This document shows positions 1-33,108 of a DNA stretch of 64,000 nucleotides, piece after piece. Position numbers and translations under genes: made by a program. The stretch is from a bacterium (lineage in GTDB: Bacteria; Myxococcota_A; UBA9160; SZUA-336): positions 10,523-74,522 of the forward strand of contig JAAELY010000545.1 of the NCBI GenBank assembly GCA_024226335.1. The letters run 5' to 3'. The notes under the pieces are model-generated. The model was not told the origin of the DNA, made no database searches, and saw only the letters and a list, made by a program, of their open reading frames with translations. Position 1 is the stretch's first letter. Each line of letters opens with the position of its first letter.

Positions 1-2241
1 GTTCCACTCTTGCAGATGAACCAGATCAGGGGGAATACGCCGCCCACGATGAACAGCGTCCCGCCGATTGCGCGGAAGTAAGTCAGGAGCTTCCACACGT
101 CACCCGTCAGGATCTCCTGCGATCGCGCGAACCAGAGTCCTTCCTGAACGACGATCATGATCTGGTACAGACCAACCGGGAACAGGTCGAGGAACATCAT
201 CAGCGCTACGCCGAGCTGTAGCGACCAGAAGGCCGACCGGACCAGCTTCGGGTTCCAGGCTTCCTTGCTGATCAGATGCTGAATGCAGAACAGCATCCCG
301 CCCAGTGCGATGTTTCCCTTTACGCCAAACATGGCGGCATGTGCGTGATTACCCGTCATGTAGGTCGCATGCTCGTAGTAGTTCACGATCGGAAGGTTGA
401 TCAGCGAACCGAATACACCGGCTCCGAAGATGTTCCAGAAGTTGACGGCGAGGACGAACAGCCACACGCCTTCCATCAGGAATACCTGTCTTCCCTCCTG
501 AACGTGCTTCTGAGCACGGCCCGCTTCCGACTTGCCTCGCCACGCATCCAGGGTCAGCAAGAGCAGGGGCAGAACCTGGAGAGTGGAGAAGACGCCTCCA
601 ACCGCGATGATTCCGGTCGGCTTGGCGATCCAGTAGAAGTTATGAGAAATGCCGAGGGTCGCTGTGACCAGGAACATCATCACGGCCAGGAAGATGACGC
701 GCTCGGCCATCATCCGGGAGATGAGGCCCATCTGAACGAGCATGTAGCCGACGATGACGGTCGTGAACACCTCGAAGGTGACCTCGACCCACATGTGAAC
801 GACCATCCAACGCCAGTAATCAGAAACGGCGAAGTTCTGCTCCGGTGAAATCATCAGCCCGAAGAACAGGAACGCGACCATGATTCCGCTGCCGTAGAGC
901 AGCCAGGAGGGCACAGACCAGATGTTCTTCGCAGTCAGCCACGGCTTCACACCGCGGTAGATGATGAAGATCCAGAGGGCGAACGAACTCAGCAGCGTGT
1001 ACTGGAAGGCTCGGCCGACCTCCATGAACTCCCAGCCCTGGCTACCGAACCAGTACGCCGCCTGGCCCGTGAGGATGCCCGTCTGTCCGGCGTAGATTCC
1101 GACCAGTGCACCCGCACCCGTGACCATGCAGATCGCGAATAGCAGGTTGATCAGGAAAAGCTGCCCGTTCGGAACCTTGGAGAGCCGGGGCAGGAAGAAG
1201 ATCGTGTAGCCGACCCACGCCATGAAGAACCAGTAGATCTGGAACAGCGTGTGATAGCTACGCAGAACGTTGAAGGGGATGATATCGCCCAGCGAGATCC
1301 CGAACGGACGAACGAAGTCCATCGACGCGAGAATACCCGCGATGACCTGACACCCGAACAGAATGATCGAAAAGACGAAGAACTTGTAGGTGGACTTTTG
1401 AGTGGCGCGGACACGCCCATCTTCAAGGTCGCTCGTGGTGAGCGAAGTTCCGTCTCCGGTGAAGGGATCACCTTGCTCCTTGAACTGTCCATACACGTAG
1501 AGAACCGCGAGGATGCCCAGGAAAAGTCCGAAGATCGAAATGAAGCTCCAGATCCAGGTCTGGCTGGTCGCGTAGTTTCCGGCATCGGGATCGTACGGCC
1601 AGTTATGCGTGTAGCTATAGACCTGACCGGGGCGGTTCGCTCCGGAAACCCAGCCTCCCCAGAAGAAGAAGGCCGTCAGGTCGCGAAGATCCGTCGGATC
1701 CGAAATGTATCCACTCGGTTCGAACGCTTCTCCGTAGTCCGGGTCGTTGAACATGCTCGTGTAGTGAACGACGAGCTCTTCGTACGCTCGCTCCTGGGCA
1801 TCGCTGATCACGATGTGCCCGGCCTTCTCGTCATAAGTGTTCGCGTGGATTTCTCGGATTACCCGTACCGAGATCGCATCCTTGTCGTGCTGGCTTCCAT
1901 CACCTTGCTCTTCGTAGAAGGCGCGCATGGAAACCACCATGCGGTGCAGGGCATCTGCGGTGAAGTCGGGGCCGCGCTCGGCTCCGTCACCCCAGAAAGA
2001 GCCATAACCCATCAAGCCTCGAAGATGGAAGACTTCCTGTCCGTGCTTGATCTGCTCACGGGAGATCACCGTCTCGCCGGTGACCTTCTTGTAGTCTTCC
2101 AGCGGTGGGGCTCCCACATAGGTTTGCGTTCCCAAATAGACCAGACCTGCGATGCAGATTGCTGAGACGATCAGGAAGTGCACCCACCAGGTGTTCTTGT
2201 CCTGAAGGATCTCAGCAAGGTTTCGGCTCGAATTACTCATG
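1..2241 (-). CDS. norZ: Quinol-dependent nitric oxide reductase (qNOR, NorZ/NorB-like), 5'-partial in window. The start is at 2241; the 3' end runs off the window edge.
   Basis: Reverse-strand translation from the ATG at 2239-2241 gives MSNSSRNLAEILQDKNTWWVHFLIVSAICIAG..., i.e. one TM helix and then a ~250-aa hydrophilic domain with no CXXCH. Twelve or more TM helices of heme-copper subunit-I type follow, with conserved His in the helices (WRWMVVHMWVEVTFEV, ISHNFYWIAKP, MTGNHAHAAMFG). This layout is typical of qNOR: a NorC-like N-terminal extension lacking heme c, fused to NorB. The track does not list it because the stop codon lies outside the window. Confidence 0.75.
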
Positions 2242-2505: not shown

Positions 2506-3471
2506 TCAGTTGACGAGTCCCATTTCCACATAGCCGGGACGCGTCCGCTCCGTGATGAGCCCGAGACGCTCCAGCTGGGGAATGACGTACTGGCGGAAGG
2601 GATTGGGCTGAGAAGCGCGGAATTCCGGATCGGAAAACTTCTCCGTCAGCTCTTTCAACGCCGCATCGGTATCGACCCCGACATCGGCGAAGATCTGGAA
2701 CATGGGGCCACCGTTCTCGGCCTGCGCTGCGGGATCGGCCAAGAGCTTGACTCCCGCAAGGGCGAAGTCCTCGACCTTGTTGCGCTCGTCTTCCGCCATG
2801 CGCGGAAGTTCTTCGCTCATGTAGATCAGACCGAAAGAGACGTGGCGAGCCTCATCTCGAGCCGTCAGATCCACGAGGCGCGAGAGCACCTCGTCCTCGG
2901 TGCCTTCTTTCATCATCTTGAACGAACCCATGGCCAGGCTCTCCGCGATGACCTGCATGCCGACGCACTTCATCTGCCACATATCTGCGGTCAAAACGGC
3001 GTTGAGCAAGGCCTTCAACGAAGGCATGATCGGATAGACGTGGTCCAGTCGCTTGATGTAGCGGTGGAACACCTCGACGTGGCGCGCCTCGTCGATCACC
3101 TGGGTGGACGCGTAGAACTTGCCGTCCATATCGGGCACGACCTCGACGAGCTGCCCGCAGCAGAGCATTGCTCCCTGCTCTCCGTGGAGCATCTGAGACA
3201 GCGTCCAGGCCGAGCGACGACTGTTCAGCTCGATCCGCTTTTCGTCTGAAAGCTCCTGGATGAAGTCAAAACCGGCGAGCGGGTCGCCACCCGGACCGGC
3301 AATCGTGCCGACCTTCGCCGGATCGGTCTCCAGGTCCCAGGGGATGTCGGTCGTCGCGTTCCACTGCTCTTTCTTCGCGACCTCGTAGAGATCGTGAAGC
3401 GCTTTCACGTTCGACTCGTAGTCGAACTTCCACAGTGTCTTGAGCGGTGTAATGATCTCTTCGAGGGTCAA
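2506..3471 (-). CDS. Ferritin-like diiron-carboxylate protein, paralog 1 (AurF/R2-like superfamily; exact family unresolved). Probable TTG start at 3471; the track extends the ORF to 3603.
   Basis: Two E...EXXH motifs are present (GEQGA...DEARHVEVF and AESLAMG...DEARHVSFG). The protein is ~70% identical to the paralog at 12055-13011. The alignment to that paralog's N-terminus (MKMPVEEIIT vs LTLEEIIT) and a GAGGA motif 7 nt upstream support the TTG start at 3469-3471. Confidence 0.6.
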   Translation of the reverse strand: MTLEEIITPLKTLWKFDYESNVKALHDLYEVAKKEQWNATTDIPWDLETDPAKVGTIAGPGGDPLAGFDFIQELSDEKRIELNSRRSAWTLSQMLHGEQGAMLCCGQLVEVVPDMDGKFYASTQVIDEARHVEVFHRYIKRLDHVYPIMPSLKALLNAVLTADMWQMKCVGMQVIAESLAMGSFKMMKEGTEDEVLSRLVDLTARDEARHVSFGLIYMSEELPRMAEDERNKVEDFALAGVKLLADPAAQAENGGPMFQIFADVGVDTDAALKELTEKFSDPEFRASQPNPFRQYVIPQLERLGLITERTRPGYVEMGLVN

Positions 3472-3497
3472 ATCGCGGTCCTCCAGACGAAAATCGA

Positions 3498-3770
3498 TTA
3501 GTTGAGATTGGCGGACGTAGAATCGCCAGCCGGAGTTGATGCGGACGAGACACCGTTGGTCTCGGATTGGGGTTCGCGCGCACGGAGCCCTCCGAGAGGG
3601 CAATACTCGGAAGCCTCGACGCAGGCTTCCTCCTCCTCAGGGGTTTCAGGCTGCTTGACGACCTGAGCCGTCGAGGACCCAGCCGGGATCTCGAAGTTCT
3701 CGGGTGCCCGTTCCTCACACAAACGGCAGCCCGTACAGTCCCGGTCGATTACCTCGAATTGACGTGGCAC
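3498..3770 (-). CDS. Small single-cluster [3Fe/4Fe-4S] ferredoxin with a low-complexity C-terminal tail.
   Basis: CTGCRLCEERAP ... EYCPLGG gives the Cx2Cx2C...CP motif. It lies 27 nt upstream of the diiron gene on the same strand. Confidence 0.65.
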   Translation of the reverse strand: MPRQFEVIDRDCTGCRLCEERAPENFEIPAGSSTAQVVKQPETPEEEEACVEASEYCPLGGLRAREPQSETNGVSSASTPAGDSTSANLN

Positions 3771-4061
3771 AGGAAAGCCTCCAACTGCGGATCTGAGCCG
3801 CGGTACCCCTATACGCTACCGCTACTCAATACTAAAGTTAGACTCCACTCTACGATTAGATAGTACCATAGAATCCCGGGAACCGGCCTAGATTCGAGCC
3901 ATGGGAAGCAAGTTCTGGGGAATCGCTTTGAGATCTCCAGAAGTCGTTGAATTTCAAGCAGATAGCCCGTATCGATGCCAGGTTCGAAGAGTCCGCGGAG
4001 TTCGATGCGGTAAGATGTCTCAGCGAACGCCCGGGTTGAGGGGCGGGTAAGAAGGGATTCT

Positions 4062-4694
4062 TTGTCGGAACTGGTCACACCTGGACGTCGCGAGAGGCGG
4101 AAGATCGAGCTTCGCGCGCGCATCTACGAGGAGGCCAGGAATCTGTTCCGGGTCCACGGCTTCGAAGGCACCACCGTGGGCCAGATTGCCGCGGCTGCGG
4201 ACATCGCACCCGCGACCTTCTTCAATCATTTCCAGAACAAACACGCCCTGTTAGGACAGATGACCGCCGAGGTTCTGGACATCCTCGAGAGCATGCTGAT
4301 CCAGGGGTTCGCGGCCGCCGATTCGACGCGCGAGCGTTTGACCGGATTTGTAGCCAACGCGGCCGATCAGATCGCCGAAACGAGGGATCTGGCCCGCGTC
4401 GTACTTCTGGAACTGGTGCGCGGCGAATCCGAACCGGGGGGCCAGCTTCCGTACGTGGCGCGCATCCACGGACCCTTTGTCGCCATGCTGCAAGAAGGCC
4501 AGGAAAAGGGAGAGGTTCGCCGGGATCAGGAGGCAGTCTTCCTGGCGGAGATGGTGGTCGGTCTGCTCAACGCACCGATCACCAACTGGCTTTCCCACCC
4601 GGACTACCCGATCGAGAAGCGCCTGCGACAGGCGGCCCAGTTCGCCTGGGAAGCCATCCAGTTGAAGGCAGATCCGGACCTCGGAAAAGTCTGA
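4062..4694 (+). CDS. TetR/AcrR family transcriptional regulator (TTG start).
   Basis: N-terminal HTH: RARIYEEARNLFRVHGFEGTTVGQIAAAADIAPATFFNHFQNKHALL. It is divergent from the ferredoxin-diiron-qNOR transcription unit. Confidence 0.8.
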   Translation: MSELVTPGRRERRKIELRARIYEEARNLFRVHGFEGTTVGQIAAAADIAPATFFNHFQNKHALLGQMTAEVLDILESMLIQGFAAADSTRERLTGFVANAADQIAETRDLARVVLLELVRGESEPGGQLPYVARIHGPFVAMLQEGQEKGEVRRDQEAVFLAEMVVGLLNAPITNWLSHPDYPIEKRLRQAAQFAWEAIQLKADPDLGKV

Positions 4695-4698
4695 GCCT

Positions 4699-5208
4699 TC
4701 AGCTCAGGAAACCGAAGCGGTGTCCCAGTGAAACCAGCGCGGCGCGCGTCTTTGCGCCGAGCTTCTCGCGCATATGCTCCACGTGGGTGGCCACTGTCGA
4801 CCGGCTGATACCGAGCTTCTCAGCGGCGGAAGCGGTCGTTTCACCGTCGGCGAGCATCTGGAGCACGTTTCGCTCGCGCGGCGTGAGCAGTTCCCATGAC
4901 TCGGGCGCCTCGCCCGCCGCGCAACTGAGCGTGCACACCACGGTGTCACCGAGCGGGATGCACGTGAGCCCGTGACTGCGCCCTTGAACGTTGATCAGGG
5001 CGTGCTGCGTCTGTTCGAGTCCGCGATTCAGCAACTCGCCCACGCAGCCTCTCCGGCAAGGCAGGCCTTCGGCATCATCCAGTCCCGGCACGACGTCCCA
5101 GCACAGGCTCCCAGTACGAGCGCCCATCATGCCGCGCGCAGGGGAATTTTGCGCAAGGACGGTTCCATCCTTGCTGGCGATCACGACTGCGGGGGACTTC
5201 ATCGTCAT
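4699..5208 (-). CDS. LuxR-family (GerE HTH) regulator with a Cys-rich N-terminal domain.
   Basis: C-terminal LTPRERNVLQMLADGETTASAAEKLGISRSTVATHVEHMREKLG. The N-terminal domain carries 7 Cys (CWD, CRRGC, CIP, CTLSC). Confidence 0.7.
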   Translation of the reverse strand: MTMKSPAVVIASKDGTVLAQNSPARGMMGARTGSLCWDVVPGLDDAEGLPCRRGCVGELLNRGLEQTQHALINVQGRSHGLTCIPLGDTVVCTLSCAAGEAPESWELLTPRERNVLQMLADGETTASAAEKLGISRSTVATHVEHMREKLGAKTRAALVSLGHRFGFLS

Positions 5209-5300
5209 CAGCGCCAGAAATGCTTACACAAGAGACCTGAGAGCGGCATGACCGGGATCATACGCTTCTCCAGATGCCGGGTGGGAACGGGATCGGGGTT

Positions 5301-5678
5301 CTAGGGGAGAGGATTGGGACCCTCCAGAACTCCGGTAATCCGGCGGCCCAGACGCTTGAGGGTGGATCCCAGGGTCCGGTCCTTCGCCCGGAAATGAGAG
5401 GTCTCGGGTCCGAGAACCAATTTGTGGGCGCGTTCGGGCGTGAGCTTCTTGGCGCGCTCGAAGAGCTCCATCTCGGTTCCGGGGTTGTTCGGATCGACCA
5501 CGCAGCAGTCGATCGGACAGGCTCGCGCGCACTGTTGCGTGTGAAAGAAGCCGACGCATTCGGTGCAGCGATCCGGATTGATGACGAAGTTCTCCGAACC
5601 CCTGGTAATGCCGCCGCTCGGGCAGGCCCGCTCGCAGACGCCACAGTTGAAGCAGTCCTCGGTAATCATGTTCGACAC
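5301..5678 (-). CDS. 2x[4Fe-4S] ferredoxin of Allochromatium (Alvin/YfhL) type. GTG start with an AAGGAG RBS.
   Basis: CFNCGVCERACP and CTECVGFFHTQQCARACP. The second cluster has the extended Cx2Cx8Cx3CP spacing, and there is a long C-terminal tail. Confidence 0.7.
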   Translation of the reverse strand: MSNMITEDCFNCGVCERACPSGGITRGSENFVINPDRCTECVGFFHTQQCARACPIDCCVVDPNNPGTEMELFERAKKLTPERAHKLVLGPETSHFRAKDRTLGSTLKRLGRRITGVLEGPNPLP

Positions 5679-5824
5679 GTACGAGACTCCTTCTCAGCTT
5701 CAATACAGTGCGAGGCTACCATCGCATGGGTGAACCTGGCCGGCTATGACACGCGTCATACCTTCTCGCCCTACACATAGAGACAAGTGAAACAGAAGAC
5801 AGGCGCGGCTTGGCAATCCTAGCG

Positions 5825-8391: not shown

Positions 8392-8844
8392 ATGTCCACC
8401 AGTCTGGTCGAATTCTTCACACGCGGTCATCGGGACATCGACTCCCGCTGGGCCGAGGTCGAAACTGCCGCCGACGCAGCGGATCGCGATGCGGTCCGCA
8501 CGGCCTGGAGCGGTTTCAATGCACTGTTGCGCGAGCACCTCGACATGGAAGAGCAATTGCTCTTCCCCGCTTTCGAGAATGCCACCGGCATGACCGGCGG
8601 ACCGACCGAGGTCATGCGCGGAGAACACACGCAGATGCGCGGACTGCTCGATCAAATGGCGAGCGCACTCGACGCGGGTGACATACAGGAACTGGTCGAT
8701 CAGGGCGACACGATTCTGATGTTGATCCAGCAGCACAACTCCAAGGAAGAAGGCATGCTCTACCCCATGTCCGAGAACGCGCTGGCAAGCGAGTGGCCCG
8801 GACTCGAAGAGAAGCTGCTCAACTGGAAAAAGAACTCGTCTTAG
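8392..8844 (+). CDS. Hemerythrin-like (HHE cation-binding) protein.
   Basis: MSTSLVEFFTRGHRDID..LREHLDMEEQLLFPAFE..MRGEHTQMRGLLDQ..QQHNSKEEGMLYPM. H/HxxxE pairs are present. RBS GAGAGGA precedes the ATG at 8392. It is divergent from the TetR-DUF2249 gene. Confidence 0.75.
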   Translation: MSTSLVEFFTRGHRDIDSRWAEVETAADAADRDAVRTAWSGFNALLREHLDMEEQLLFPAFENATGMTGGPTEVMRGEHTQMRGLLDQMASALDAGDIQELVDQGDTILMLIQQHNSKEEGMLYPMSENALASEWPGLEEKLLNWKKNSS

Positions 8845-9624: not shown

Positions 9625-10419
9625 GTGCCAGAGTCACGTGCAGAAGTCGCATGCAACCCGCCGGACGCAGGAGGATCAGCCGTGGCCACTTCCAACGCCG
9701 GCAAGGCGCGCAATCGTCTTCACCCAATCGTCGCCACACGCGCACTGCGCGCCCTCAGCGCAAACCCCGACGACACCACCCAGGCGATCATCGCCATCGG
9801 TGCTCTCTCCGGAAATTCCCACGCGCGTCTCTTCAGACGCTTCAAGAAATCCGAAAAGGGGCGGAAGATCCTGCTCGAGAAGCGCACCCTCTACGACCTG
9901 CTGGCCGACCAGGAGCGGATGCTGGCCATGCCCCCCGGCTCTCTCGGACGGACAATCGTCGAGTGGTTCATTCGCGAGAACCTCAGTGCCGAAGGACTCG
10001 CAGGGGCCAGCCAGGCCGCCGCCAAGGAGTTGGGCGACCGGCCCCCGATAAGCGATGAGGCAGAGGTCTTCGGCACGCGCATACGCAATCTGCACGACGT
10101 CTTCCACGTCGTAACCGGTTACGACCGAGATATGCGCGGCGAGATGGCCGTGCTCTCCTTCACGTTCGCGCAGACGGGCAATACCGGAATCGCGTACATG
10201 GTCGGCAGGTCGCTACTTCGCATGGGATGGAACTCGGAGACGGGCAAGCTGATCCGCCAGGGCTACCGGCGCGGTCGACGCGCGCAATGGCTGCTCGACC
10301 AGGACTGGGAGACACTTTTCGAACAGCCGATCGACCAGGTGCGCGAGCAACTCGGTCTCGGCGAACCGCCGGTCTACGAACAACTTCGCTCCGCCGGCGC
10401 TCCCGCGCTGAGCGCCTGA
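9625..10419 (+). CDS. Coq4-family protein (ubiquinone biosynthesis Coq4-like). GTG start; the start position is uncertain.
   Basis: HDVFHVVTGYDRDMRGE matches the Coq4 HDxxH-x11-E zinc-ligand motif. Confidence 0.55.
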   Translation: MPESRAEVACNPPDAGGSAVATSNAGKARNRLHPIVATRALRALSANPDDTTQAIIAIGALSGNSHARLFRRFKKSEKGRKILLEKRTLYDLLADQERMLAMPPGSLGRTIVEWFIRENLSAEGLAGASQAAAKELGDRPPISDEAEVFGTRIRNLHDVFHVVTGYDRDMRGEMAVLSFTFAQTGNTGIAYMVGRSLLRMGWNSETGKLIRQGYRRGRRAQWLLDQDWETLFEQPIDQVREQLGLGEPPVYEQLRSAGAPALSA

Positions 10420-10457: not shown

Positions 10458-11942
10458 ATGAGCAGCCGAATCATCGTCGTGGGCGGTTCCGTCACCGGTC
10501 TGGTCGTGGCCCTGGTGCTGGCCCGGGAAGGACATCAGGTCACGGTCCTGGAAAAGGACCCGACGCCGCTACCGGAAACACCCGACGAGGCTTTCCAAGG
10601 TTGGCAGCGGCGGGGCGCTCCCCAGGTCCTGCAATCCCACGCGTTTCTCGGCCGCATGCACAACCTGATCCGCGACCGCGAGCCCGAACTCTTGCAACAC
10701 CTGCTCGACGCAGGGGCCGAAGAGTTGACGTTTCGCAGCATGGCCGGCCAGTACCTGGCCGACCCGGTCTTCGAGCCGGGAGATGACGACCTGGTTCTAC
10801 TGGCCTGCCGCCGGGTCACGCTCGAATGGGTACTGCGCCGCCATGTGCTCGCAACGGGCCTCGTCGAGGTTCGGGACGGCGATGAGGTCACCGGCCTGGT
10901 CGCCGAACGCGATCCCGGGACCGGACTTCAAAGCGTTGCGGGCGTCAACCTGCGCGCGGGCAATGGCGCCACGAGCGTTCTGGCGGGTGACCTGATCATC
11001 GACGCCAGCGGACGGCGTTCGAAGCTCTCCGAGTGGCTCGTCGAGATCGGTGCACCGGCGATGCGCGAAGAATCGAGTTCTTGCGGGATCTTCTACGCGA
11101 GCCGCTTTTATCGGCTGCTCGAAGGCGCGAGTCGGCCGAGCGAGGACGGCATCATAGGTGCGGATCTCGGCTACCTGAAGTACGGCATCTTCCCGGGCGA
11201 CGCGCGCACATTCTCGATCACACTCGCGGCGGCCCCCGATGACGATCCCATGCGCGCGATCCTGCGCACGCCGAGCTTCGAACGTGTGACCGAATCAGTG
11301 CCTATGTTGAAGGAATGGACCGACCCGGCGGTTTCAGAACCGATCACCGAAGCCAACGGCATGGCGAACCTGCGCAACACGCGGCGTTACTTCGTCGAGA
11401 ATGGCGAACCGCTCGCGCTGGGCGTAATTGCGATCGGCGACGCGTTGATCCACGCCAACCCGATCACGGGTCGCGGCTGCAGCCTGGCCTGGATCAGCGC
11501 CTACGCTCTGGCCGATGCGCTGCGAAAGCACTCGGGTGACCCGCGTGCCATCGTGCTCGAACTCGAATCGGTCATCGAGAGCGAACTCGCACCCTGGTTG
11601 CAGATGCAATTGCGCCAGGACGAGGCAGCCATCGAGGTCAACGAAGCCCTGTGCCGCGGCGAGGATCCCTTCCTGGTCGAACGGCCCGATGGAACGCGGG
11701 ATCAGAAGGCTTACATGCAGGACGTGATCCGGCAGGGTCTGGGTCCCGCGATACGCTCGAACGTGGAGATGATGCGCAGCTTCATGCGCGTCGCTCACAT
11801 GCTCGACAACCCCATGGAACTGCTGAGCGATCCGGAAGTGATCCGGCAGGTGCTCGTAGCCTATGAGACTCGCCACGAGCGCGAAACGCTGGTCCGGGGC
11901 CCGGAACGGACGGAGATGCTTGAGATTCTGGCCGCGGCCTGA
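10458..11942 (+). CDS. FAD-dependent monooxygenase/oxidoreductase (PHBH fold).
   Basis: IIVVGGSVTGLVVALVLAREGHQVTVLEKD is a Rossmann FAD site. GDALIHANPITGRGCSLA is a second FAD motif. RBS GAGGAG precedes the ATG at 10458. The 5' part of the track ORF (from 10227) is upstream non-coding read-through. Confidence 0.7.
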   Translation: MSSRIIVVGGSVTGLVVALVLAREGHQVTVLEKDPTPLPETPDEAFQGWQRRGAPQVLQSHAFLGRMHNLIRDREPELLQHLLDAGAEELTFRSMAGQYLADPVFEPGDDDLVLLACRRVTLEWVLRRHVLATGLVEVRDGDEVTGLVAERDPGTGLQSVAGVNLRAGNGATSVLAGDLIIDASGRRSKLSEWLVEIGAPAMREESSSCGIFYASRFYRLLEGASRPSEDGIIGADLGYLKYGIFPGDARTFSITLAAAPDDDPMRAILRTPSFERVTESVPMLKEWTDPAVSEPITEANGMANLRNTRRYFVENGEPLALGVIAIGDALIHANPITGRGCSLAWISAYALADALRKHSGDPRAIVLELESVIESELAPWLQMQLRQDEAAIEVNEALCRGEDPFLVERPDGTRDQKAYMQDVIRQGLGPAIRSNVEMMRSFMRVAHMLDNPMELLSDPEVIRQVLVAYETRHERETLVRGPERTEMLEILAAA

Positions 11943-11973
11943 GCAGATCCGAGCGCTGAAAGAAGGCCGGACA

Positions 11974-11987
11974 TGACTGGGGTCATA
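11974..11987 (+). promoter_or_regulatory. FNR/CRP-family-like palindrome ATGAC-N4-GTCAT upstream of diiron paralog 2.
   Basis: atgactggggtcat. TGAC-N4-GTCA core; centre ~75 bp upstream of the ATG at 12055. Confidence 0.3.
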
Positions 11988-13130: not shown

Positions 13131-14114
<984 letters not shown>

Positions 14115-21209: not shown

Positions 21210-23810
21210 TCAGGCCTTTCGCACTCTCACAGCGCACTTCTTGTAGTCGGTCTCCTTCGAGATCGGACAAGTCGCATCCAGAGTCAGCTTGTTGATCAAC
21301 ACGTTCTCGTCGAACCAGGGCACGAATACCAGACCTTTCGGTACACGATTGCGACCCTGTGTATCAACGCGCACGCGCACCTTTCCGCGCCGCGACTCCA
21401 TCACGACCTCGTCGTTGCGCTTGATGCCACGCGAGGCCGCATCCTCAGGGTGCATCCAACACACCGCGTAAGGCACCGCACGGTTGAGCTCCGCAACACG
21501 CTTGGTCATCGAACCCGAGTGCCAGTGCTCGAGCACCCGACCCGTGCACAACCACAGGTCATAGCCCTTGTCCGGAATCTCTGCGGCCTCAGCGTAGGGC
21601 CGGAAGAAGATCTTCGCGCGACCCGCCACACTCACCTTCTCACCCTTGAGACTGCCGTTCGGGATCTTCTTCAGCGCCTTGCCGTAGAAGTCGTACCCCT
21701 TGCCGGGCTTCACGTAGGGATCGTAGCCCTCCTTGAAGCGCCACTGCGTCTCGCGCCCATTAACCACCGGCCAACGCAGACCTCGCACCTTGTGATAGGT
21801 ATCGAAATCCGCCAGGTCGTGACCATTGCCGAGACCGAACTCGCGGTACTCGGCCCACAGCGCCTTGTGCACGAAGAATCCCGCCTCCTCGGCCACATCG
21901 TTGGGATGGCCATTGGCAATCGGATCGGGCCAGGCGTGCTTCTTGTATTCGGGCCGCGCGAACAGAACTTCGTACAGCGTCTGTTCGGGGTCGTAGCCCA
22001 TCTTCTTGGCATCTGCGAGCACATCGGGAAGCTTGCCGTCGGGGAAACCGTCGACCTTCAGACCGGGCAGTGGCTGCTCCTTCCACACTTCCTTCAGCTT
22101 GAAGCGCTTCGAGAATTCCATCGTCTGCCAGATATCGGCCTTCGCCTCACCTGGAGCCTTCACCTGCTGACGCCAGTGTTGCGTTCGCCGCTCGGCGTTT
22201 CCGTAGGCGCCCCACTTCTCGTAGATCATGGCCGCTGGCAGGACCAGATCGGCGACCTTGGCCGACACCGTAGGATAGGCATCCGAGACGACGATGAAGT
22301 TATCGCCCTCGCGCGCCGCCTTGACCCACTCGTTGGCGTTGGCGAAGTCCTGGAATGGATTGGTCACCTGCGCCCAGAAAAAGCGCACCTTGCCCGACCG
22401 CAACTGGCGCATCATCTTGACCGCGTGCGTCCCCACCTTGGGGTTGAGCGTCTTCGCGGGCAGATGCCAGAGCTTCTCGCTCTTGGCACGATGGCCACCG
22501 TTGAAAACCACCATGTCCGACGGTAGGCGATGCGCGAAGGTGCCGACCTCGCGCGCGGTACCGCAAGCCGAAGGCTGTCCGGTGAGCGAGAAAGCTCCCG
22601 AACCGGGCGTCGACATCTTGCCACCCAGGAGGTGAATGGCGTAGATCTGCTCGTTCACCCAGGTACCGCGCGAATGCTGGTTGAAACCCATTGTCCAGAA
22701 CGAAATGATCTTCTTCTTGCGATCCGAATACAGATCAGCCAGCTCGATCAGCTTCTCCTTCGACACGCCCGAGATCTTGCTCACGTGCTCGGCCGTGTAG
22801 GGCTCGAGCTGCTTCTTGTACTCCTCGAAACTGATCTTCCAGTGTGCGCCGGCTTTGCCGCGCATCTTCTGGCCTTTCTCGCGCGGGTGGTCGGCAGGCA
22901 ATCCGTAACCGATATCCGTCGGGCCGGTTGCAAACACACAGTGCTTGTCGATGAACTCCTTGTCGATCGCCCCCTTCTTGATCATGTGGCGAGCGATGTA
23001 GTTCATGATCGCCAGGTCGGTCTGCGGCTTGAAGATGATCTCGACGTCCGCGAGATCGCTACAACGATTCCCGTAGGTAGAGAGATTGATGACCTTGGTC
23101 GCGGGCTTGCTGAGCTTGCGATCGGTGACCCGCGACCACAGGATCGGATGGCACTCGGCCATGTTCGCGCCCCAGGTCACGACGGCATCTGTCTGTTCGA
23201 TATCGTCGTAGCAGCCCGGAGGCTCGTCGATACCAAACGTCTGGATGAATCCAGCAACCGCGGACGCCATGCAGTGTCGAGCGTTCGGGTCGAGATTATT
23301 CGAGCGGACGCCCGCCTTCATGAACTTGGCGGCGGCATACCCCTCGTCAATCGTGTATTGGCCAGAGCCGAAGACCGCAACACTCGACGGACCGTACTGG
23401 CCGTAGTACTGCTTGAATTTCTGCTCCATCACGTCGAAGGCCTTGTCCCAGGACACCGGAGTGAAGCGGCCCTTCTTGTCGTACTTGCCATCCTTCATGC
23501 GCAAGAGGGGCTTCGTGAGCCGATCCTCTCCGTACATGATCTTGGCGTTGAAGTAGCCCTTGATGCAGTTGAGACCCCGGTTCACAGGCGATTCAGGGTC
23601 GCCCTTGACCGAAACCACACGGCCCTCCTTGGTGGCCATCATGATTCCGCAACCGACGCCACAGAAGCGGCACACGGACTTGTCCCACTTCCAATCCTTC
23701 TGCAGTTCTGCAGCCTGTGCCCGCGCTTCGGGCGGAATGGAAATTCCGATTCCGGTGGCCACTGAGGCCGCAACCGCCGTCTTGACGAACTCCCGTCGCG
23801 TCTGTGCCAT
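21210..23810 (-). CDS. napA: NapA, periplasmic nitrate reductase catalytic molybdopterin subunit.
   Basis: Tat signal [45 protein letters not shown] is the N-terminal [4Fe-4S] motif. 866 aa. Confidence 0.9.
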
Positions 23811-28590: not shown

Positions 28591-30207
28591 TCAGTAAATA
28601 TCGTGAACTGTGTTGTACACGTTCCACTTGCCGGTGGGCGTTTGCAGCCAATCATTCTTGAGGCGCTGCTTCTCCTTCAGCGTCTTGTCGTCGTAAATGA
28701 TGACCTCGCCCTGCTTGTCCCATACCGACGCCCATACTTCATCGCCCGCCTTGTTGTACTCGAAGTGGACGATCTTTCCGTGGTCGGTGGCCTTCCAGCA
28801 CTTGGCACCCTCGTCGAAGGCGTCCTTTCTGAAGACACAGATCTGCTGGTTGTCGCCCTTTTCCTTGGACAAAGTTGCGTCAGTCCAGACGTGATTGCTC
28901 TTGGGATGCGTCTTCAGGAACAGTCCGGGACCACCGGTCTCCTCCTCTCGGACGACCTTCCAGGCGTGCTCCGGATGCCCGGCCGGGTCCGACCCGTACA
29001 CGGATATGAGTCCTTCACCTAGATGGGTGGTTGCGCTCACCGGTCCGTATTTCGGGTCTACCCAGTTCGCACCGCGTCCGGGATGTGGCTTTACCCCGGT
29101 CTCGAACTTGGTCACGAACTTCTTTTCCTTTGTATCCACGACGACGATCTGGTCACGCATGTTCGCCGCGATCAGGAGATAGCGCTTGGTGGCGTCCCAA
29201 CCTCCGTCGTGCAGGAACCGCTCGGTCGCGATCTGCGTCATCTTCAGGTTGTCGAGGTCAGAGTAGTCCACCAACCAGACCATTCCGGTCTCTTTGATCG
29301 CCACGACCCACTCGGAGTCGAAGTGCGAAGCGATGATCGTCGCCACGCGCGGTTCCGGGTGATACTCGTTTGTATCGTAGGTGGAGGATCGGGTGGAGAT
29401 GACCTTGATCGGCTCGAGGGTCTGTCCATCAACCACGACCATCTGCGGCGGCCAGTAGCAACCGACGATCGCCAACTTGTCGCGGAAGTCACCCTTGGGT
29501 CCCTTGTACTTCGAAACGTCAACGGATCGCGCGTCCAGGCAGACACGAACCTCGGCCACCACCTCGGGCTTCTTCTGGTAGAGGTCGATCAGGGTGAGCT
29601 TGCCGTCGCGACCGATCGTGTAGAAGTAACGACCGGTGAAGGAAGCTCGGAAAATGTGAACGGCGAAACCGGTCTTGAGGACGCTTACCGCCTCCTTGGT
29701 GTCGCCGTCAATGATTGCGGCCTTACCAACGTCGCGCAGGATGTAACCGAAGGTGTTGTCGATGTCCCGGCTGTGTTCGGGCTTCTTCGGCCGCTTGGAA
29801 ACCGGAATGTGGACCTTATGGGTCTCCTTCATCTCCTTCAGGCTCATCTCCGGCGGAATCGGCACCGGATTCTGTACAAACTTCGCCATCAGGGCCGTCT
29901 GGGCCTTGGTCATCTCACCTGTTCGGCCCCAGCCGGGCATTCCGGCGTCGGTACCTTCGAAGATCGTCTTTTCCAATTCGGGAAGCGTCTGCTCCAACAT
30001 CTTCTTGTCGGTGATGCCGGGGCCGGTAGCGCCCTTGCGAAGCGCACCGTGACAGCCGGAGCAGCGGTCGAAATAGATAAACTGCGCTTCCTCAAACTCC
30101 TTCTCGGAAAGCTTGGGAGCCGTTGCACCGCTGGCAATCGAGGGGGCGATCAGTGCAGTCGTCGCCAGGACCACCGCGAAGAACCGAAAAATTCGCAAGC
30201 CTGTCAT
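28591..30207 (-). CDS. nirS: Cytochrome cd1 nitrite reductase NirS. ATG at 30205-30207; the track ORF extends to 30429.
   Basis: MTGLRIFRFFAVVLATTALIAPSIASGA is a signal peptide. FDRCSGCHG is the heme c site. Followed by a d1 propeller ending ...TGKWNVYNTVHDIY. GGAGG RBS. Confidence 0.85.
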   Translation of the reverse strand: MTGLRIFRFFAVVLATTALIAPSIASGATAPKLSEKEFEEAQFIYFDRCSGCHGALRKGATGPGITDKKMLEQTLPELEKTIFEGTDAGMPGWGRTGEMTKAQTALMAKFVQNPVPIPPEMSLKEMKETHKVHIPVSKRPKKPEHSRDIDNTFGYILRDVGKAAIIDGDTKEAVSVLKTGFAVHIFRASFTGRYFYTIGRDGKLTLIDLYQKKPEVVAEVRVCLDARSVDVSKYKGPKGDFRDKLAIVGCYWPPQMVVVDGQTLEPIKVISTRSSTYDTNEYHPEPRVATIIASHFDSEWVVAIKETGMVWLVDYSDLDNLKMTQIATERFLHDGGWDATKRYLLIAANMRDQIVVVDTKEKKFVTKFETGVKPHPGRGANWVDPKYGPVSATTHLGEGLISVYGSDPAGHPEHAWKVVREEETGGPGLFLKTHPKSNHVWTDATLSKEKGDNQQICVFRKDAFDEGAKCWKATDHGKIVHFEYNKAGDEVWASVWDKQGEVIIYDDKTLKEKQRLKNDWLQTPTGKWNVYNTVHDIY

Positions 30208-30334
30208 CGTAGGACCTCCATACGCGCGCTGGTTTGCAAGCGGCATGCCCGGAGAGACGTTCTCGGGGACCGCCGGATAGTGCCGAATCTGCTGACTCAT
30301 CGGGTGCAATACCCTACAGCCCGCATTCAAACTG

Positions 30335-30347
30335 TGACAATTCGTCA
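30335..30347. promoter_or_regulatory. Palindrome TGAC-aattc-GTCA ~130 bp upstream of the nirS start; possible CRP/FNR (Dnr/NnrR)-type site with atypical N5 spacing.
   Basis: tgacaattcgtca. Confidence 0.2.
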
Positions 30348-30392
30348 AACGCAATCTCTTATAAGGTGCGGCTAAGTGGCGCAGACTAGCAA

Positions 30393-30788
30393 CTAGCCCA
30401 CGTCTGCGAGTGTGGTCGTTGAGGCCCACGAACGGAAGGCTTCACTCATCTGGACCCAGGCCGGATGCAATGGGCAGGGATCGCTCGGGTCACACGCACC
30501 CCAACCGAAAACACACCGGTCGTCACCGGGATAAGCGTCGACCGCAGCCAGGATTTCTGTAAAGGGAATCTCCGACGGTGGACGCGCCAGCTCGAAGCCC
30601 CCTCCCACTCCTTTGTAAGACTCGAGCACCCCGGCCACGACGAGACGTCGGAGAATTTTGGCCAGATACGGCGCGGGAATGCCCGTCTCATTGGAGAGAT
30701 CGCGAGCGCGGACCGGCGTCTCGTCGGGATTCGCCGCGAGCCAGGCCGCTGCGCGAAGAGCGTATTCGGCTGTCTGTGACAGGACCAT
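30393..30788 (-). CDS. nsrR: Rrf2-family transcriptional regulator, NsrR-like NO sensor.
   Basis: N-terminal wHTH (TAEYALRAAAWLA..). Three-Cys cluster CVFGWGACDPSDPCPLH. Upstream of nirS and divergent from the nnrS-like gene. Confidence 0.75.
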   Translation of the reverse strand: MVLSQTAEYALRAAAWLAANPDETPVRARDLSNETGIPAPYLAKILRRLVVAGVLESYKGVGGGFELARPPSEIPFTEILAAVDAYPGDDRCVFGWGACDPSDPCPLHPAWVQMSEAFRSWASTTTLADVG

Positions 30789-30801
30789 CCGCTGCCCGAC
30801 C

Positions 30802-30826
30802 TCGTTTCGCAGTCTCGTTTCGCAGA
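30802..30826. repeat. Tandem direct repeat 2x ctcgtttcgcag (1-nt spacer) in the nsrR/nnrS-like divergent region.
   Basis: cctcgtttcgcag t ctcgtttcgcag, seen directly in the sequence. Confidence 0.5.
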
Positions 30827-30876
30827 TTTCGTCCCGCCCTGGTGCTGCAAAACATGGACCGGAAGAACTCGATATC

Positions 30877-30889
30877 TGCTACTGTAGCA
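30877..30889. promoter_or_regulatory. Inverted repeat TGCTAC-T-GTAGCA in the nsrR/nnrS-like divergent promoter region; candidate Rrf2 operator.
   Basis: Perfect 6-1-6 palindrome in the sequence. Confidence 0.3.
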
Positions 30890-30961
30890 TCCTGGTGGAC
30901 CAACGGATCTGAAGGTCCACTATCCCCCCCATGGATCATCGCAGGCGAGGAGGCTCGAGGA

Positions 30962-32404
30962 ATGTCCGCGTCCGGAAGCATGCCGCAACCGGAAGAGTCG
31001 CCCGTCGCACGCCTGTGGCTGGGACTCTCCCTGTTGGTGCTGGTCTTCGCGGGCCTGTTTGCGCTGGCCGTGGTCGTCGCTCGAACGCCACCGTTCGACC
31101 GCCTGGTGACCGATCCACTGTTCTTCAAACGATGCCTGGCCGCGCACGTAAACCTGGCCCTGGTCGCGTGGTTCTACTCCTTCCTGGCCGGCCTGCTCTT
31201 CCTGCTTCCGGGACGCGAACGCCCCGGGTGGCTGGCGAGGCACTCGGTCCATATCGCTGGCACGGGCATCGCCCTTTTACTCGTCGGCGCGTCCATGCCC
31301 GGCGGTCGCCCCGTACTCGCGAACTACATCCCGAGCATCGACCATCCACTTTTCCGCACGGGTCAGTTCCTGTTCGGCCTGGGCGTTCTCACCAGCTTGT
31401 TCGACCGTCGGTTGTTCTGGGCGCGCGATGCGGTATCGGGCCCCCTGCAACTTTCGGATGCATGTATCGCGGGCCTGCGGGTTGCCGCACTCGGACTGTT
31501 GCTGGCGTTGCTTACTTTCGGTCTCTCCGCCCTGAGCCTTCCGGCGGGACTCGACCCCGATGCGCGCTGGGACTTGCTGGTATGGGGCGGGGGCCACGTT
31601 CTTCAGCTGGTTTGTGTAATCGCAATGCTCTCGGTCTGGCTGCTGTTGCTCACACCGGTACTGGGCAGACCCCCGGTCAGCGGCCGGGGCGCGACCTGGA
31701 TCTTCGGCGCGATGCTCATGCCCTGGACCCTGGGCCTGCTCTTCCTGCTTCAGGGAACCGGGAGTCCGGCCTATCGGACCGGCTTCACCTCGCTGATGCA
31801 GTGGGGAATCTTCCCGCCCGTACTGGTGTTTCTGGCACTGTGCGGACGCGCGTTGGTACTCGCCGTGCGCGAGCAGCGCATCGGCCGACGAGCTTTCGGC
31901 GATCTGCGCATATCGGCCTTCCTGGTGAGTGCTGCACTCACCTTGGTGGGCTTCGCCCTCGGTGCCTCGATCCGCGGATCGAACACGATGGTACCGGCGC
32001 ACTATCACGCCTCGGTCGGTGCGGTGACGGTGGCCTTCATGGCGGCCGCCTACCCGATACTCGCCTGCTTTGGGCTGGCACTTCCCACTGCGCGGATGCG
32101 CAAAGCCGCGGCCTGGCAGCCGCTATTGTACGGTGGGGGTATGCTAGTGTTCGCAGCCGGTTTTGCGCTTGCGGGCGCCTACGGCATGGGCCGAAAGGTC
32201 TATGGCGCCGAACAGGCAGCGCGAGGGCTGGCCGAGTCGGTGGGGCTGGGCTTGATGGGGTTTGGCGGCTTGATCGCAATTGTCGGGGGAATGCTTTTCC
32301 TCGTCGTGGTCGCCAACGCCTGGTGGCGCGGCATCGAATCGGATGAACCGATTACTCTTCACCTGGGACGGAGGTGGCGCTTTGGAAACGAAGAACACGG
32401 ATGA
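30962..32404 (+). CDS. 12-TM membrane protein, NnrS-like (heme/copper membrane protein of NO-responsive regulons). Assignment tentative.
   Basis: 12 predicted TM helices. Intramembrane His in TM2, TM3 and TM6, plus HYH in TM10. GAGGAGG RBS before the ATG at 30962. Divergent from the Rrf2 gene. Confidence 0.45.
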   Translation: MSASGSMPQPEESPVARLWLGLSLLVLVFAGLFALAVVVARTPPFDRLVTDPLFFKRCLAAHVNLALVAWFYSFLAGLLFLLPGRERPGWLARHSVHIAGTGIALLLVGASMPGGRPVLANYIPSIDHPLFRTGQFLFGLGVLTSLFDRRLFWARDAVSGPLQLSDACIAGLRVAALGLLLALLTFGLSALSLPAGLDPDARWDLLVWGGGHVLQLVCVIAMLSVWLLLLTPVLGRPPVSGRGATWIFGAMLMPWTLGLLFLLQGTGSPAYRTGFTSLMQWGIFPPVLVFLALCGRALVLAVREQRIGRRAFGDLRISAFLVSAALTLVGFALGASIRGSNTMVPAHYHASVGAVTVAFMAAAYPILACFGLALPTARMRKAAAWQPLLYGGGMLVFAAGFALAGAYGMGRKVYGAEQAARGLAESVGLGLMGFGGLIAIVGGMLFLVVVANAWWRGIESDEPITLHLGRRWRFGNEEHG

Positions 32405-32559: not shown

Positions 32560-33087
32560 ATGAGTATCCATCAGCCACCGGCTGACTGGTTCAAGGCACC
32601 GGACAGCACCGAGCGCCTGTGGGTGGGACTCGCGTTGATCTGGTGCCTGGTGATGTTCATCGCCATGCCGTACTGGTATTTTTACGGCAAGCAGAACAGC
32701 GTCGGTGAGGGGTACCTCGTCGAGCCGATGGAGTTCAGCCAGCGTGTCAGCAAGTTCGTAGAGACCAATAAGGTCGGCGAATTGAAGGGCATTCCGATCG
32801 TCGAGGCGGCGCCGGGAGGCGACGTCTATCTACAGGCGATGATGTGGAGCTGGTTCCCGGTCATCCAGATGCGCAAGGATCAAACCTACCGTCTGCACAT
32901 CTCGTCGTTGGACCTGCAACACGGCTTCTCGATACAGCCGCTCAACATGAACTTCCAGATCCTGCCCGGCTACGACCACGTACTGACCATCACGCCGACG
33001 AGTGCCGGCGAATTTTCGATCGTATGCAACGAGTTCTGCGGTATCGGGCACCACCTGATGACCGGCCGCATTCTCGTCGTCGAGTAG
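32560..33087 (+). CDS. Heme-copper oxidase superfamily subunit II, single TM plus a cupredoxin CuA domain (B-family / NOR-like).
   Basis: DLQHGFSI followed by CNEFCGIGHHLM gives the H...CxExCGxxHxxM CuA ligand set. 175 aa with one TM helix. Confidence 0.8.
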   Translation: MSIHQPPADWFKAPDSTERLWVGLALIWCLVMFIAMPYWYFYGKQNSVGEGYLVEPMEFSQRVSKFVETNKVGELKGIPIVEAAPGGDVYLQAMMWSWFPVIQMRKDQTYRLHISSLDLQHGFSIQPLNMNFQILPGYDHVLTITPTSAGEFSIVCNEFCGIGHHLMTGRILVVE

Positions 33088-33108
33088 GAGAGGCCGCGAT
33101 GACCACGA

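Follow-up and report, generated by a model that had tools for sequence, protein, structure and literature searches.

A 64,000-nt stretch of a genome assembled from a bacterium of the Myxococcota_A lineage (GCA_024226335.1, contig JAAELY010000545.1, positions 10,523 to 74,522; G+C ~62%), referred to here as the window, encodes two paralogous ferritin-like proteins, copy 1 and copy 2, among the genes of a full denitrification enzyme set. With modest confidence, and from sequence and gene context, we propose that both are soluble ferritin-fold dimetal (probably diiron) oxidases that would be driven by ferredoxin, depend on O2 and act on a lipid-like substrate within a low-oxygen island. The proposal is based on a six-ligand metal site, an affinity to R2lox and to aldehyde-deformylating oxygenase (ADO), fusions to lipid-handling domains, acyl-CoA operons, a FadR-like repressor and the absence, in the wider family, of linkage to the genes of nitric oxide (NO) and nitrite reductases (nor/nir). 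An original prediction for this DNA had considered an NO- or N-oxide-related role; as the principal function this was not supported, since none of 152 loci with distant relatives showed such linkage and the fusions and operons of relatives point to lipids and quinones.

Family assignment and active site

Copy 1 (321 aa) and copy 2 (318 aa) both carry HGEQGA...DEARHVEVF and E..DEARHVS(F/Y)G, confirming the two ~320-aa paralogs with a duplicated diiron-carboxylate motif that had been noted before; the ~70% identity given with them holds for DNA (70.5% over 928 nt) but not for protein (62%). A four-helix core with E...EXXH twice (four Glu and two His ligands) places them in the ferritin-like diiron-carboxylate superfamily. 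The six ligands (E97, E127, H130, E176, E206 and H209) were invariant across 21 diverse members of the family, and an AlphaFold model built from 17 homologs had a pLDDT of 82 and a pTM of 0.84. Both copies exceeded the gathering threshold of Pfam AurF (PF11583; 29.6 bits; scores in Table 1). No NCBIfam model was matched above its cut-off by either copy, the best being R2lox (NF006200) at 33.9 and 33.8 bits vs 194. Copy 2 fell short of the ADO models (Ald_deCOase, 16.2 bits vs 28; TIGR04059, 15.1 vs 222), copy 1 matched neither of them, and Pfam COQ7 was absent from the matches of both copies at E<=1.

PF11583 is the family of the N-oxygenases AurF, CmlI and DnfA, and the two proteins might accordingly be thought to oxidize an amine or amide nitrogen to the hydroxylamine, nitroso or nitro level, with the nitronate monooxygenase (NMO)-family protein encoded after copy 2 perhaps acting on the product. 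Another NMO-family gene is found in the operon of a related locus, L003 (loci are given L numbers), and DnfA is an example of a PF11583 enzyme that, together with a reductase partner, can contribute to inorganic nitrogen turnover (PMC9478400, PMC11160463). We nevertheless consider this function very improbable. AurF, CmlI and DnfA have a seventh ligand, a His placed four residues ahead of the Glu in the second EXXH, which gives them a 3-His/4-carboxylate site (PMC9478400, PMC7848743). Both copies have T202 at this place, and 21 relatives have Thr or Val, never His; a third His (H-x3-E-x2-H), mapped by motif spacing on core helix 4, was found in none of these proteins. This failed ligand test disfavors an AurF-type N-oxygenase role. 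Identity to AurF and CmlI was 14-16%, and in three PDB searches neither enzyme was among the matches listed: they were not reached at E<=10 with a single sequence or a 17-sequence profile, were not among the best 60 of 100 matches of a 21-member profile, and appeared only in fold searches. Glutamine amidotransferase and natural-product genes were not seen nearby, and the NMO-family protein scored best against FabK (NCBIfam, 245 bits, below the cut-off of 453).

The best PDB match of the 21-member profile was R2lox (E 9.6e-9), followed by ADO and RNR R2, and the N-terminal LYEKAKR-x-WN motif is common to the family and R2lox in alignment. The Tyr of the Tyr-Val ether cross-link of R2lox (Y162 in the numbering of the Geobacillus enzyme) precedes the third Glu by five residues; its place is taken here by Met171 (HMMER alignment to 6qk1/6f6c: 'vYNMIVEG' vs 'GMQVIvEg'). 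Judged by these comparisons, both copies belong to the PF11583 superfamily but are neither of N-oxygenase type nor R2lox proper, and form an uncharacterized sister group; their predicted six-ligand site is of the kind found in C-H/O-H oxidizing enzymes. Classification by profile hidden Markov models and structure has thus largely resolved a family that had been left among AurF-like N-oxygenases, desaturase-like and other proteins. The diiron-carboxylate assignment and the Pfam AurF match stand; the N-oxygenase type, for want of its His, falls away, as do R2lox, ADO and COQ7.

Two further candidates were considered. An iron-storage or ferroxidase role is unlikely because of the dedicated ferredoxin, the substrate-type regulators and the enzyme-domain fusions. 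BioE was dropped as a close relative; it is ADO-like and has a MocR/GntR regulator.

The copy 1 operon

The left end of the window carries, on the minus strand, the gene of quinol-dependent nitric oxide reductase (qNOR), which runs off the window edge, then copy 1 and a ferredoxin gene, with a TetR-family gene divergent from them. The original prediction had this arrangement right, with the copy 1 pair just upstream of a co-directional qNOR gene, and it also recognized the single-cluster ferredoxin. Copy 1 starts with TTG at 3471, 7 nt past GGAGG, and this start gives NCBI protein P0001 (321 aa) at 100% identity. The ferredoxin, a Fer4_13 match with the cysteines C12-x2-C15-x2-C18...C56-P, ends 26 nt before it. 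A Fer4_13 ferredoxin gene lies directly upstream of the diiron gene in eight related loci (the window, L001, L003, L005, L082, L083, L087 and L169), with gaps of -4 to ~120 nt, and in L002 and L165 it adjoins the diiron gene but is encoded on the opposite strand. Conservation of a dedicated ferredoxin gene beside the oxygenase gene is the pattern of a ferredoxin-dependent oxygenase, and the copy 1 ferredoxin is the likely electron donor to copy 1, as had been suggested. Between the stop of copy 1 and the start of qNOR are 265 nt in which we found no terminator-like hairpin, so that the two genes may be co-transcribed; a sigma-70-like promoter sought around the operon was not found.

The divergent regulator passes Pfam TetR_C_4 (YsiA-like; 29.3 bits vs a cut-off of 21), and its best NCBIfam match is Bacillus-type FadR (51.5 bits, below the cut-off of 200). 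Orthologs that are 54-72% identical to it flank diiron genes of the type of copy 1 (c1-type) in L003, L005, L081, L082, L168 and L169. An element of the ATCTAATC...TGGAGT type is common to the TetR-ferredoxin intergenic regions of five loci (the window, L082, L169, L168 and L081), and the L168 version is a perfect ACTCCAAGCTTGGAGT palindrome. We infer that the ATCTAATCGTAGAGTGGAGTC element of the window is a candidate operator of the TetR protein.

Relatives and their fusions

Exact look-up of both window diiron proteins in the contig index gave no match, and homologs were used instead. A word-indexed search returned at least 7,960 homologs, the best 120 of which (62-100% identical) came from metagenome-assembled genomes (MAGs) labeled Deltaproteobacteria, Myxococcota or Acidobacteriota; in the databases they go by 'ferritin-like domain-containing protein' or 'diiron oxygenase'. 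Among 50%-identity representatives, an exhaustive search gave 1,720 clusters at E<=1e-3, of which 218 passed E<=1e-30. In genome and metagenome contigs 160 loci were identified, 152 of them with relatives 31-45% identical, from SAR86, Alcanivorax, Halieaceae, Cellvibrionales, Caulobacter/Hyphomonadaceae, Binatia, spirochaetes and others. The matches listed from the metagenome scan were mostly distant relatives, with three close ones, and served as negative controls.

Within up to 10 kb, qNOR, NirS, NapA and NosZ (tblastn with all window proteins) and NirK (an added query) were found at none of the 152 distant loci. The co-occurrence with nor/nir genes that the original prediction had proposed to look for across genomes was seen only in the close clade, with qNOR in the window, L082 and L166 and NirK in L169. 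De novo clustering of neighbors gave no dominant partner (the commonest cluster occurred in 13 of 80 genome loci), and a single housekeeping synteny for the family was not found. The commoner neighbors were SDR proteins, AraC/TetR/GntR regulators, luciferase-like monooxygenase, acyl-CoA dehydrogenase and acyl-CoA synthetase.

In several relatives the diiron domain is fused to other domains (Table 1). It lies C-terminal to AMP-binding, PP-binding and NAD_binding_4 domains in proteins of ~1,400 aa, and after an ABC1/UbiB-Coq8 kinase domain in others; the fused diiron domains keep all family motifs and are about 32-40% identical to copy 1. By its domain composition, the AMP-binding/PP-binding/NAD_binding_4 set is a predicted carboxylic-acid-reductase (CAR)-like module that releases aldehydes. 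The CAR-like fusion mirrors the pair of acyl-ACP reductase and ADO, which indicates fatty-acyl or aldehyde substrates, and the polypeptide could be a single-chain hydrocarbon-forming or aldehyde-oxidizing enzyme. The ABC1/Coq8 fusion, together with a recurrent Coq4-like neighbor, indicates prenyl-quinone or related lipid metabolism.

The close clade and nitric oxide

Genes of c1-type are at least 73% identical to copy 1 and occur singly, with a FadR-like TetR gene and/or a ferredoxin gene. Six such loci had long flanks (the window, L082, L169, L168, L081 and L083). qNOR adjoins the window locus, and in L082 the ferredoxin-diiron pair, divergent from TetR, is accompanied by a NorE-like COX3 gene and qNOR. 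L169 has an SCO1-NirK-cytochrome c group, then its TetR, ferredoxin and diiron genes, followed by hemerythrin and Crp genes; the NirK, ~600 nt from the TetR, ferredoxin and diiron group, is bona fide (TIGR02376, 481 bits). The L168 diiron gene is divergent from TetR, with DUF2249 and hemerythrin genes ~4-5 kb off. In L081 the TetR gene is divergent from a diiron-PhyH pair, which faces a Coq4-FAD oxidoreductase-ferredoxin operon, and in L083 thiolase/ChsH2 genes precede the order ferredoxin-diiron-GST-ACAD. The more distant L003, from an oxygen-minimum-zone Myxococcota MAG, has TetR divergent from a ferredoxin-diiron pair that runs into a beta-oxidation-like operon in the order ChsH2-like, thiolase, enoyl-CoA hydratase, acyl-CoA dehydrogenase, NMO and carboxyltransferase. 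Other loci have a membrane FA_desaturase gene nearby (L004), a CoA-transferase gene (L002) or a PhyH gene (L081 and L166).

Genes of the type of copy 2 (c2-type) are at least 68% identical to it (68-85%), often stand in tandem pairs and have a palindrome upstream (L002, L004, L082, L086, L165 and L166). The diiron gene beside Coq4 and qNOR in L166 is of this type, in the order diiron, Coq4, LuxR, qNOR, YfhL-type ferredoxin, a 99-aa protein and radical SAM. The window, L082 and L166 have qNORs with 77-81% identity to one another, indicating that the three loci descend from one island and represent about one evolutionary event; L169 with its NirK is a second event.

These loci bear on the idea that the proteins are accessories of denitrification in NO handling or nitrosative stress, in which a ferredoxin-reduced dimetal site would bind or reduce NO or nitrite, or would repair or replace NO-damaged functions. 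We consider it improbable. For the c1 pair there is a correspondingly small chance of an accessory role in the NO/nitrite respiration of a Myxococcota-like clade, as a cytoplasmic NO/nitrite handler or a remover of NO-derived lipid damage; it is likewise doubtful that the protein is a ferritin-fold analog of NorA/YtfE, kept beside qNOR or NirK through rearrangements by working with them. We retain an NO role at this low level because four of the six long c1-type loci lie near qNOR, NirK or hemerythrin/DUF2249 genes. Copy 1 stands close upstream of qNOR and no terminator-like site was found to separate the two, a ferredoxin-diiron pair (L082) and a c2-type gene (L166) adjoin qNOR despite rearrangement, the L169 pair is near NirK with hemerythrin and Crp-family genes nearby, and DUF2249 and hemerythrin genes occur near family genes in the window and L168. 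Genes of DUF2249 are induced under denitrifying conditions in Haloferax and linked to nitrate sensing in Thermus (PMC11218638, PMC6282519), and di-iron proteins can handle NO and nitrite (PMC9052748, PMC8913304). Set against these observations are the absence of nor/nir/nap/nos linkage at the 152 distant loci, the common descent of the three qNOR loci, an operon regulator that is FadR-like and not an NO sensor, fusion partners that are lipid-handling domains, and a palindrome that no nirS, nap, nos or qNOR promoter of the window carries.

Copy 2 and a possible quinone link

Copy 2 lies in a plus-strand run of genes for hemerythrin, HAD hydrolase, a Coq4-like protein, FAD oxidoreductase, copy 2 itself and an NMO/FabK-family flavoprotein. 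To its 3' side are heme d1 genes (NirDL-like, NirF, NirJ and NirN), NapDABH, NirS, two COX1-family genes and the NosZ cluster. It had been stated correctly that NMO and then the heme d1 genes follow copy 2; the claim that copy 2 is monocistronic is not established, as the gene sits within this co-directional run. The hemerythrin is 62% identical to that near the c1-type gene in L168. Matches of the FAD-dependent oxidoreductase were limited to its N-terminal Rossmann region and weak monooxygenase/geranylgeranyl-reductase similarity, and an ortholog 60-63% identical to it is part of the L081 Coq4-FAD oxidoreductase-ferredoxin operon. Coq4-like genes adjoin family members in L081, L166 (two), L167, L094 and L050. 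The set of Coq4-like protein, unusual FAD oxidoreductase, ferredoxin and diiron protein recurs, and its part types are those of eukaryotic complex Q.

A serious, if less likely, alternative is that the diiron proteins, copy 2 above all, hydroxylate a quinone ring as functional analogs of Coq7. They would then work with the Coq4-like oxidative decarboxylase, the FAD oxidoreductase in a Coq6/UbiH-like role and ferredoxin in making or modifying a prenylated quinone, and this quinone could feed quinol-dependent enzymes such as qNOR and Nap. COQ4 is an O2-dependent C1 oxidative decarboxylase of prenyl-hydroxybenzoate with an HDxxH-x11-E motif (PMC10680789); the motif is intact in the window protein, whose gene and that of the FAD oxidoreductase are directly upstream of copy 2. 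Support also comes from the operon facing the c1-type gene in L081, the diiron-Coq4 pairs in L166 and L167, the Coq4-like genes near the distant members in L094 and L050, the ABC1/UbiB-Coq8 kinase fusions, and the palindrome that precedes Coq4, diiron, ferredoxin and PhyH genes alike. Yet neither copy matches Pfam COQ7, the FAD protein matches UbiH/Coq6 models in a 35-residue Rossmann motif only, and genes of the UbiA/UbiE/UbiG type do not accompany the module in the loci examined. Two to five or more paralogs per genome, often in tandem, would be unusual for a housekeeping hydroxylase, and a Coq4-like gene is missing from most loci of the family.

A conserved palindrome upstream of copy 2

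The palindrome cATGAC-TGGG-GTCATAcc lies 68 nt upstream of copy 2 and appears to be a genuine conserved operator. The original prediction had described it as FNR/CRP-like. The element is real and conserved, and its TGA-N6-TCA core is of the CRP/FNR type, which makes the label reasonable, but the position given (11974-11987) was one base off. ATGAC-N4-GTCAT occurs twice in the window vs 0.02 expected, and the exact 14-mer occurs 10 times in the 2.15 Mb searched, each time in the window or close relatives. In its full form it reads (GG)TATGAC-N4-GTCATA(CC). When as many as two mismatches are allowed, this element precedes c2-type diiron, Coq4-like and PhyH genes and the genes of Fer4_13 and YfhL-type ferredoxins, as well as the LuxR-type regulator gene (in the window, and in L166 at 11745) and a diiron-like multi-gene cassette (L168), and it stands on both sides of the Crp-family gene in L169. 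No canonical FNR box (TTGAT-N4-ATCAA) occurs in the window, one mismatch being allowed, and the annotated window genes include none of the Crp/FNR family. The window's own nirS, nap, nos and qNOR promoters lack the palindrome, suggesting that it marks an oxygenase/ferredoxin regulon and not the core denitrification regulon.

Proposed function

In the reaction that we favor, that of a ferredoxin-driven lipid oxidase, the [4Fe-4S] ferredoxin encoded just upstream would hand two electrons to the dimetal site, the reduced site would activate O2, and the activated site would oxidize a hydrophobic lipid-like substrate by desaturation, hydroxylation or deformylation. The substrate of copy 1 would most likely be a fatty acyl thioester or aldehyde, with the operon switched by the divergent FadR/YsiA-like TetR protein. 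A prenylated quinol or other isoprenoid lipid is an alternative substrate for copy 2, because copy 2 travels with the Coq4-like protein and the FAD oxidoreductase. The position in the island would reflect shared low-oxygen regulation rather than any part in reducing NO. As markers of low-oxygen regulation we take hemerythrin, the Cys-rich LuxR-type regulator and the CRP/FNR-type palindrome, and the many O2-dependent enzymes of the regulon would fit such regulation. The link to denitrification is then lineage-specific and probably regulatory.

Several points weigh against this proposal. The evidence on substrates comes from relatives and gene context, and the TetR score for NCBIfam FadR is far under the cut-off. 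The wider family is without a uniform neighborhood, as the clustering figures indicate, and the names of the neighbor clusters rest on manual reading of representative sequences. An O2-dependent enzyme in an island of anaerobic respiration needs the added assumption of low oxygen, and the metal could be Mn/Fe, as in R2lox. Two of the six c1-type loci stand beside qNOR (the window and L082), one beside NirK (L169), and a fourth (L168) has DUF2249 and hemerythrin genes at the distance given above; this suggests that the nor/nir adjacency of c1-type genes exceeds chance, though the qNOR loci share ancestry.

Other features of the window and related loci

The denitrification enzymes of the window comprise NapDABH, NirS with the heme d1 genes, qNOR, and NosZ with NosD/F/Y/L (Table 1). 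The two heme-copper-oxidase subunit I genes adjoining nirS may be members of proposed alternative NO-reductase families. An NrfD/4Fe-4S/cytochrome module and a cytochrome b-FeS fusion are also encoded.

Between the copy 1 operon and the copy 2 run lie several conserved genes. The 445-aa membrane protein (no Pfam/NCBIfam match) is kept at 50-55% identity; both in the window and in L168 its neighbors are DUF2249 and a divergently oriented hemerythrin gene, and the window version of the DUF2249 pair carries a fused TetR DNA-binding domain. The small LuxR/GerE-type regulator has a Cys-rich N-terminal domain of ~100 aa, lacks a receiver domain, is 56-57% identical in relatives, and could sense redox state or NO. 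In all three loci with a related qNOR (the window, L082 and L166), a dicluster ferredoxin of the YfhL family is encoded as well, extended by ~45 aa at its C-terminus. The L082 and L166 loci add to it a radical SAM gene, a gene for a protein of 98-99 aa and one that is COX3/NorE-like, a group not seen in the window.

Paired distant diiron-like paralogs (~365-395 aa, no Pfam match) with a conserved 145-aa protein were noted in further loci. They resemble the alpha/beta and small subunits of a multicomponent diiron monooxygenase, and the L168 pair is preceded by the palindrome.

Table 1. Positions of genes and sites in the window, and of corresponding regions and proteins in relatives.
Feature	Position or identifier	Strand	Match or remark
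qNOR, cut by window start	3-2240	-	Pfam NorB_cytochrome_c-like 158.8 bits, COX1 165.2 bits
Diiron copy 1 (c1-type), 321 aa, predicted ferritin-like 2-His/4-carboxylate oxidase	2506-3471	-	Pfam AurF 72.6 bits
Single-cluster ferredoxin, 90 aa	3498-3770	-	Pfam Fer4_13 47.7 bits (cut-off 24.5)
Candidate TetR operator (ATCTAATCGTAGAGTGGAGTC as read on the minus strand)	3841-3861		TetR-ferredoxin intergenic region
TetR regulator, YsiA/FadR-like, divergent	4062-4694	+	Pfam TetR_N 48.9 bits
LuxR/GerE-type regulator	4699-5208	-	Cys-rich N-terminal half
Palindrome, weaker third site	5247-5262		2 mismatches; upstream of LuxR-type regulator gene
YfhL-type dicluster ferredoxin	5301-5678	-	
Palindrome, second site, TATGAC-ACGC-GTCATA	5745-5760		upstream of YfhL-type ferredoxin gene
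Membrane protein, 445 aa	5825-7162	-	no Pfam/NCBIfam match
TetR-DUF2249x2 fusion	7159-~8290	-	
Hemerythrin-domain protein, first in run	8404-8844	+	Pfam Hemerythrin 74.5 bits; start codon not fixed
Coq4-like protein	9625-10419	+	Pfam Coq4 77.2 bits; HDxxH-x11-E intact
FAD-dependent oxidoreductase	10458-11942	+	between Coq4-like gene and copy 2
Palindrome upstream of copy 2	11972-11987		14-mer ATGAC-N4-GTCAT at 11973-11986
Diiron copy 2 (c2-type), 318 aa	12055-13011	+	Pfam AurF 50.4 bits
NMO/FabK-family flavoprotein	13143-14114	+	Pfam NMO 186 bits
Denitrification core genes	21210-23810, 28591-30429, 39190-41487 and neighbors		
Heme-copper-oxidase subunit I genes (two)	30578-32404 and 32844-34847	+	adjoining nirS; first very divergent, COX1 45.7 bits
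Coq4-like regions in relatives	L081 12246-14442; L166 10984-11694 and 18618-19112; L167 11012-11683		
LuxR/GerE-type regulator in relatives	L166 11798-12322; L167 5666-6175		directly upstream of qNOR in L166
YfhL-ferredoxin regions in relatives	L082 14455-16381; L166 14963-16835 and 16854-17471		
Membrane protein/DUF2249/hemerythrin regions in relatives	L168 13798-15968; L082 7244-8632		
Paired diiron-like paralogs	L165 12093-15807; L168 11019-13720; L167 7986-9672; L107; L058		
Palindrome sites in relatives	L002 9631; L004 8805; L081 10986/12179/14500; L082 2845; L086 ~2527; L165 9660; L166 9798/11745/15384/19550; L167 9890; L168 830/7200/13787; L169 7898/8721		
Fusion proteins (both kinds)	P0157, P0192, P0247 (~1,400 aa), P0243, P0180; P0155, P0141		

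Significance and comparison with known systems

A sizeable family, known only by generic database names and with no member characterized, can now be given a working definition as R2lox/ADO-like six-ligand dimetal oxidases with a dedicated [4Fe-4S] ferredoxin, a FadR-like repressor, and CAR-like and UbiB/Coq8 fusions, and concrete substrates can be suggested for it. Membership of PF11583 beside nor/nir genes should not be read as N-oxide chemistry. The TATGAC-N4-GTCATA regulon (oxygenase, Coq4-like, PhyH and ferredoxin genes) and the bacterial module of Coq4-like, FAD, diiron and ferredoxin proteins are by-products of the analysis. The NO-related role, if true, would mean that denitrification based on qNOR and NirK has a further, new accessory.

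The family differs from AurF, CmlI and DnfA in the missing seventh ligand, in its low identity to AurF and CmlI and in a context without amine-metabolite or natural-product genes. It resembles R2lox, its best profile match, in the LYEKAKR-x-WN motif, the 2-His/4-carboxylate site and a length of ~320 aa, and differs from it in scoring 34 bits against model cut-offs of at least 194, in having Met171 for the cross-link Tyr and in its ferredoxin partner, none being described for R2lox. R2lox binds long-chain fatty acids (PMC9314684), and acyl-CoA/ACP is cleaved by BioE, a ferritin-like oxygenase with a 2-His/4-carboxylate site (PMC12704756). Unlike the family, ADO and BioE are ~230 aa long and lack the N- and C-terminal extensions, and the Ald_deCOase score was only 16 bits vs 28.

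In NorA/YtfE (RIC), too, the gene of a di-iron protein can stand directly upstream of the qNOR gene, as in the norA-norB arrangement of Cupriavidus/Ralstonia. Those proteins are hemerythrin-like four-helix bundles with no known ferredoxin partner, in contrast to the ferritin-like fold found here. NorA and NorB have been treated together (PMC9045102).

In the desT/desCB system of Pseudomonas aeruginosa, a desaturase and an electron-transfer protein are under the control of an acyl-CoA-sensing repressor (PMC10634369). Its gene layout is that of the copy 1 operon: the gene of a TetR-family repressor is divergent from those of an electron carrier and a diiron enzyme, an O2-dependent desaturase there and a predicted oxidase here. 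The likeness is one of logic only: DesB is a membrane histidine-box desaturase, DesC is an oxidoreductase, and neither is homologous to the proteins described here. Eukaryotic complex Q differs in that Pfam COQ7 is not matched by the diiron proteins, the FAD protein is not a clear UbiH/Coq6, and the bacterial module is without prenyltransferase and methyltransferase genes. The part types are nevertheless the same, with Coq7 accompanied by Coq4, Coq6, Coq8 and ferredoxin in the eukaryotic complex and Coq8 represented in the bacterial family through the ABC1 fusions of relatives.

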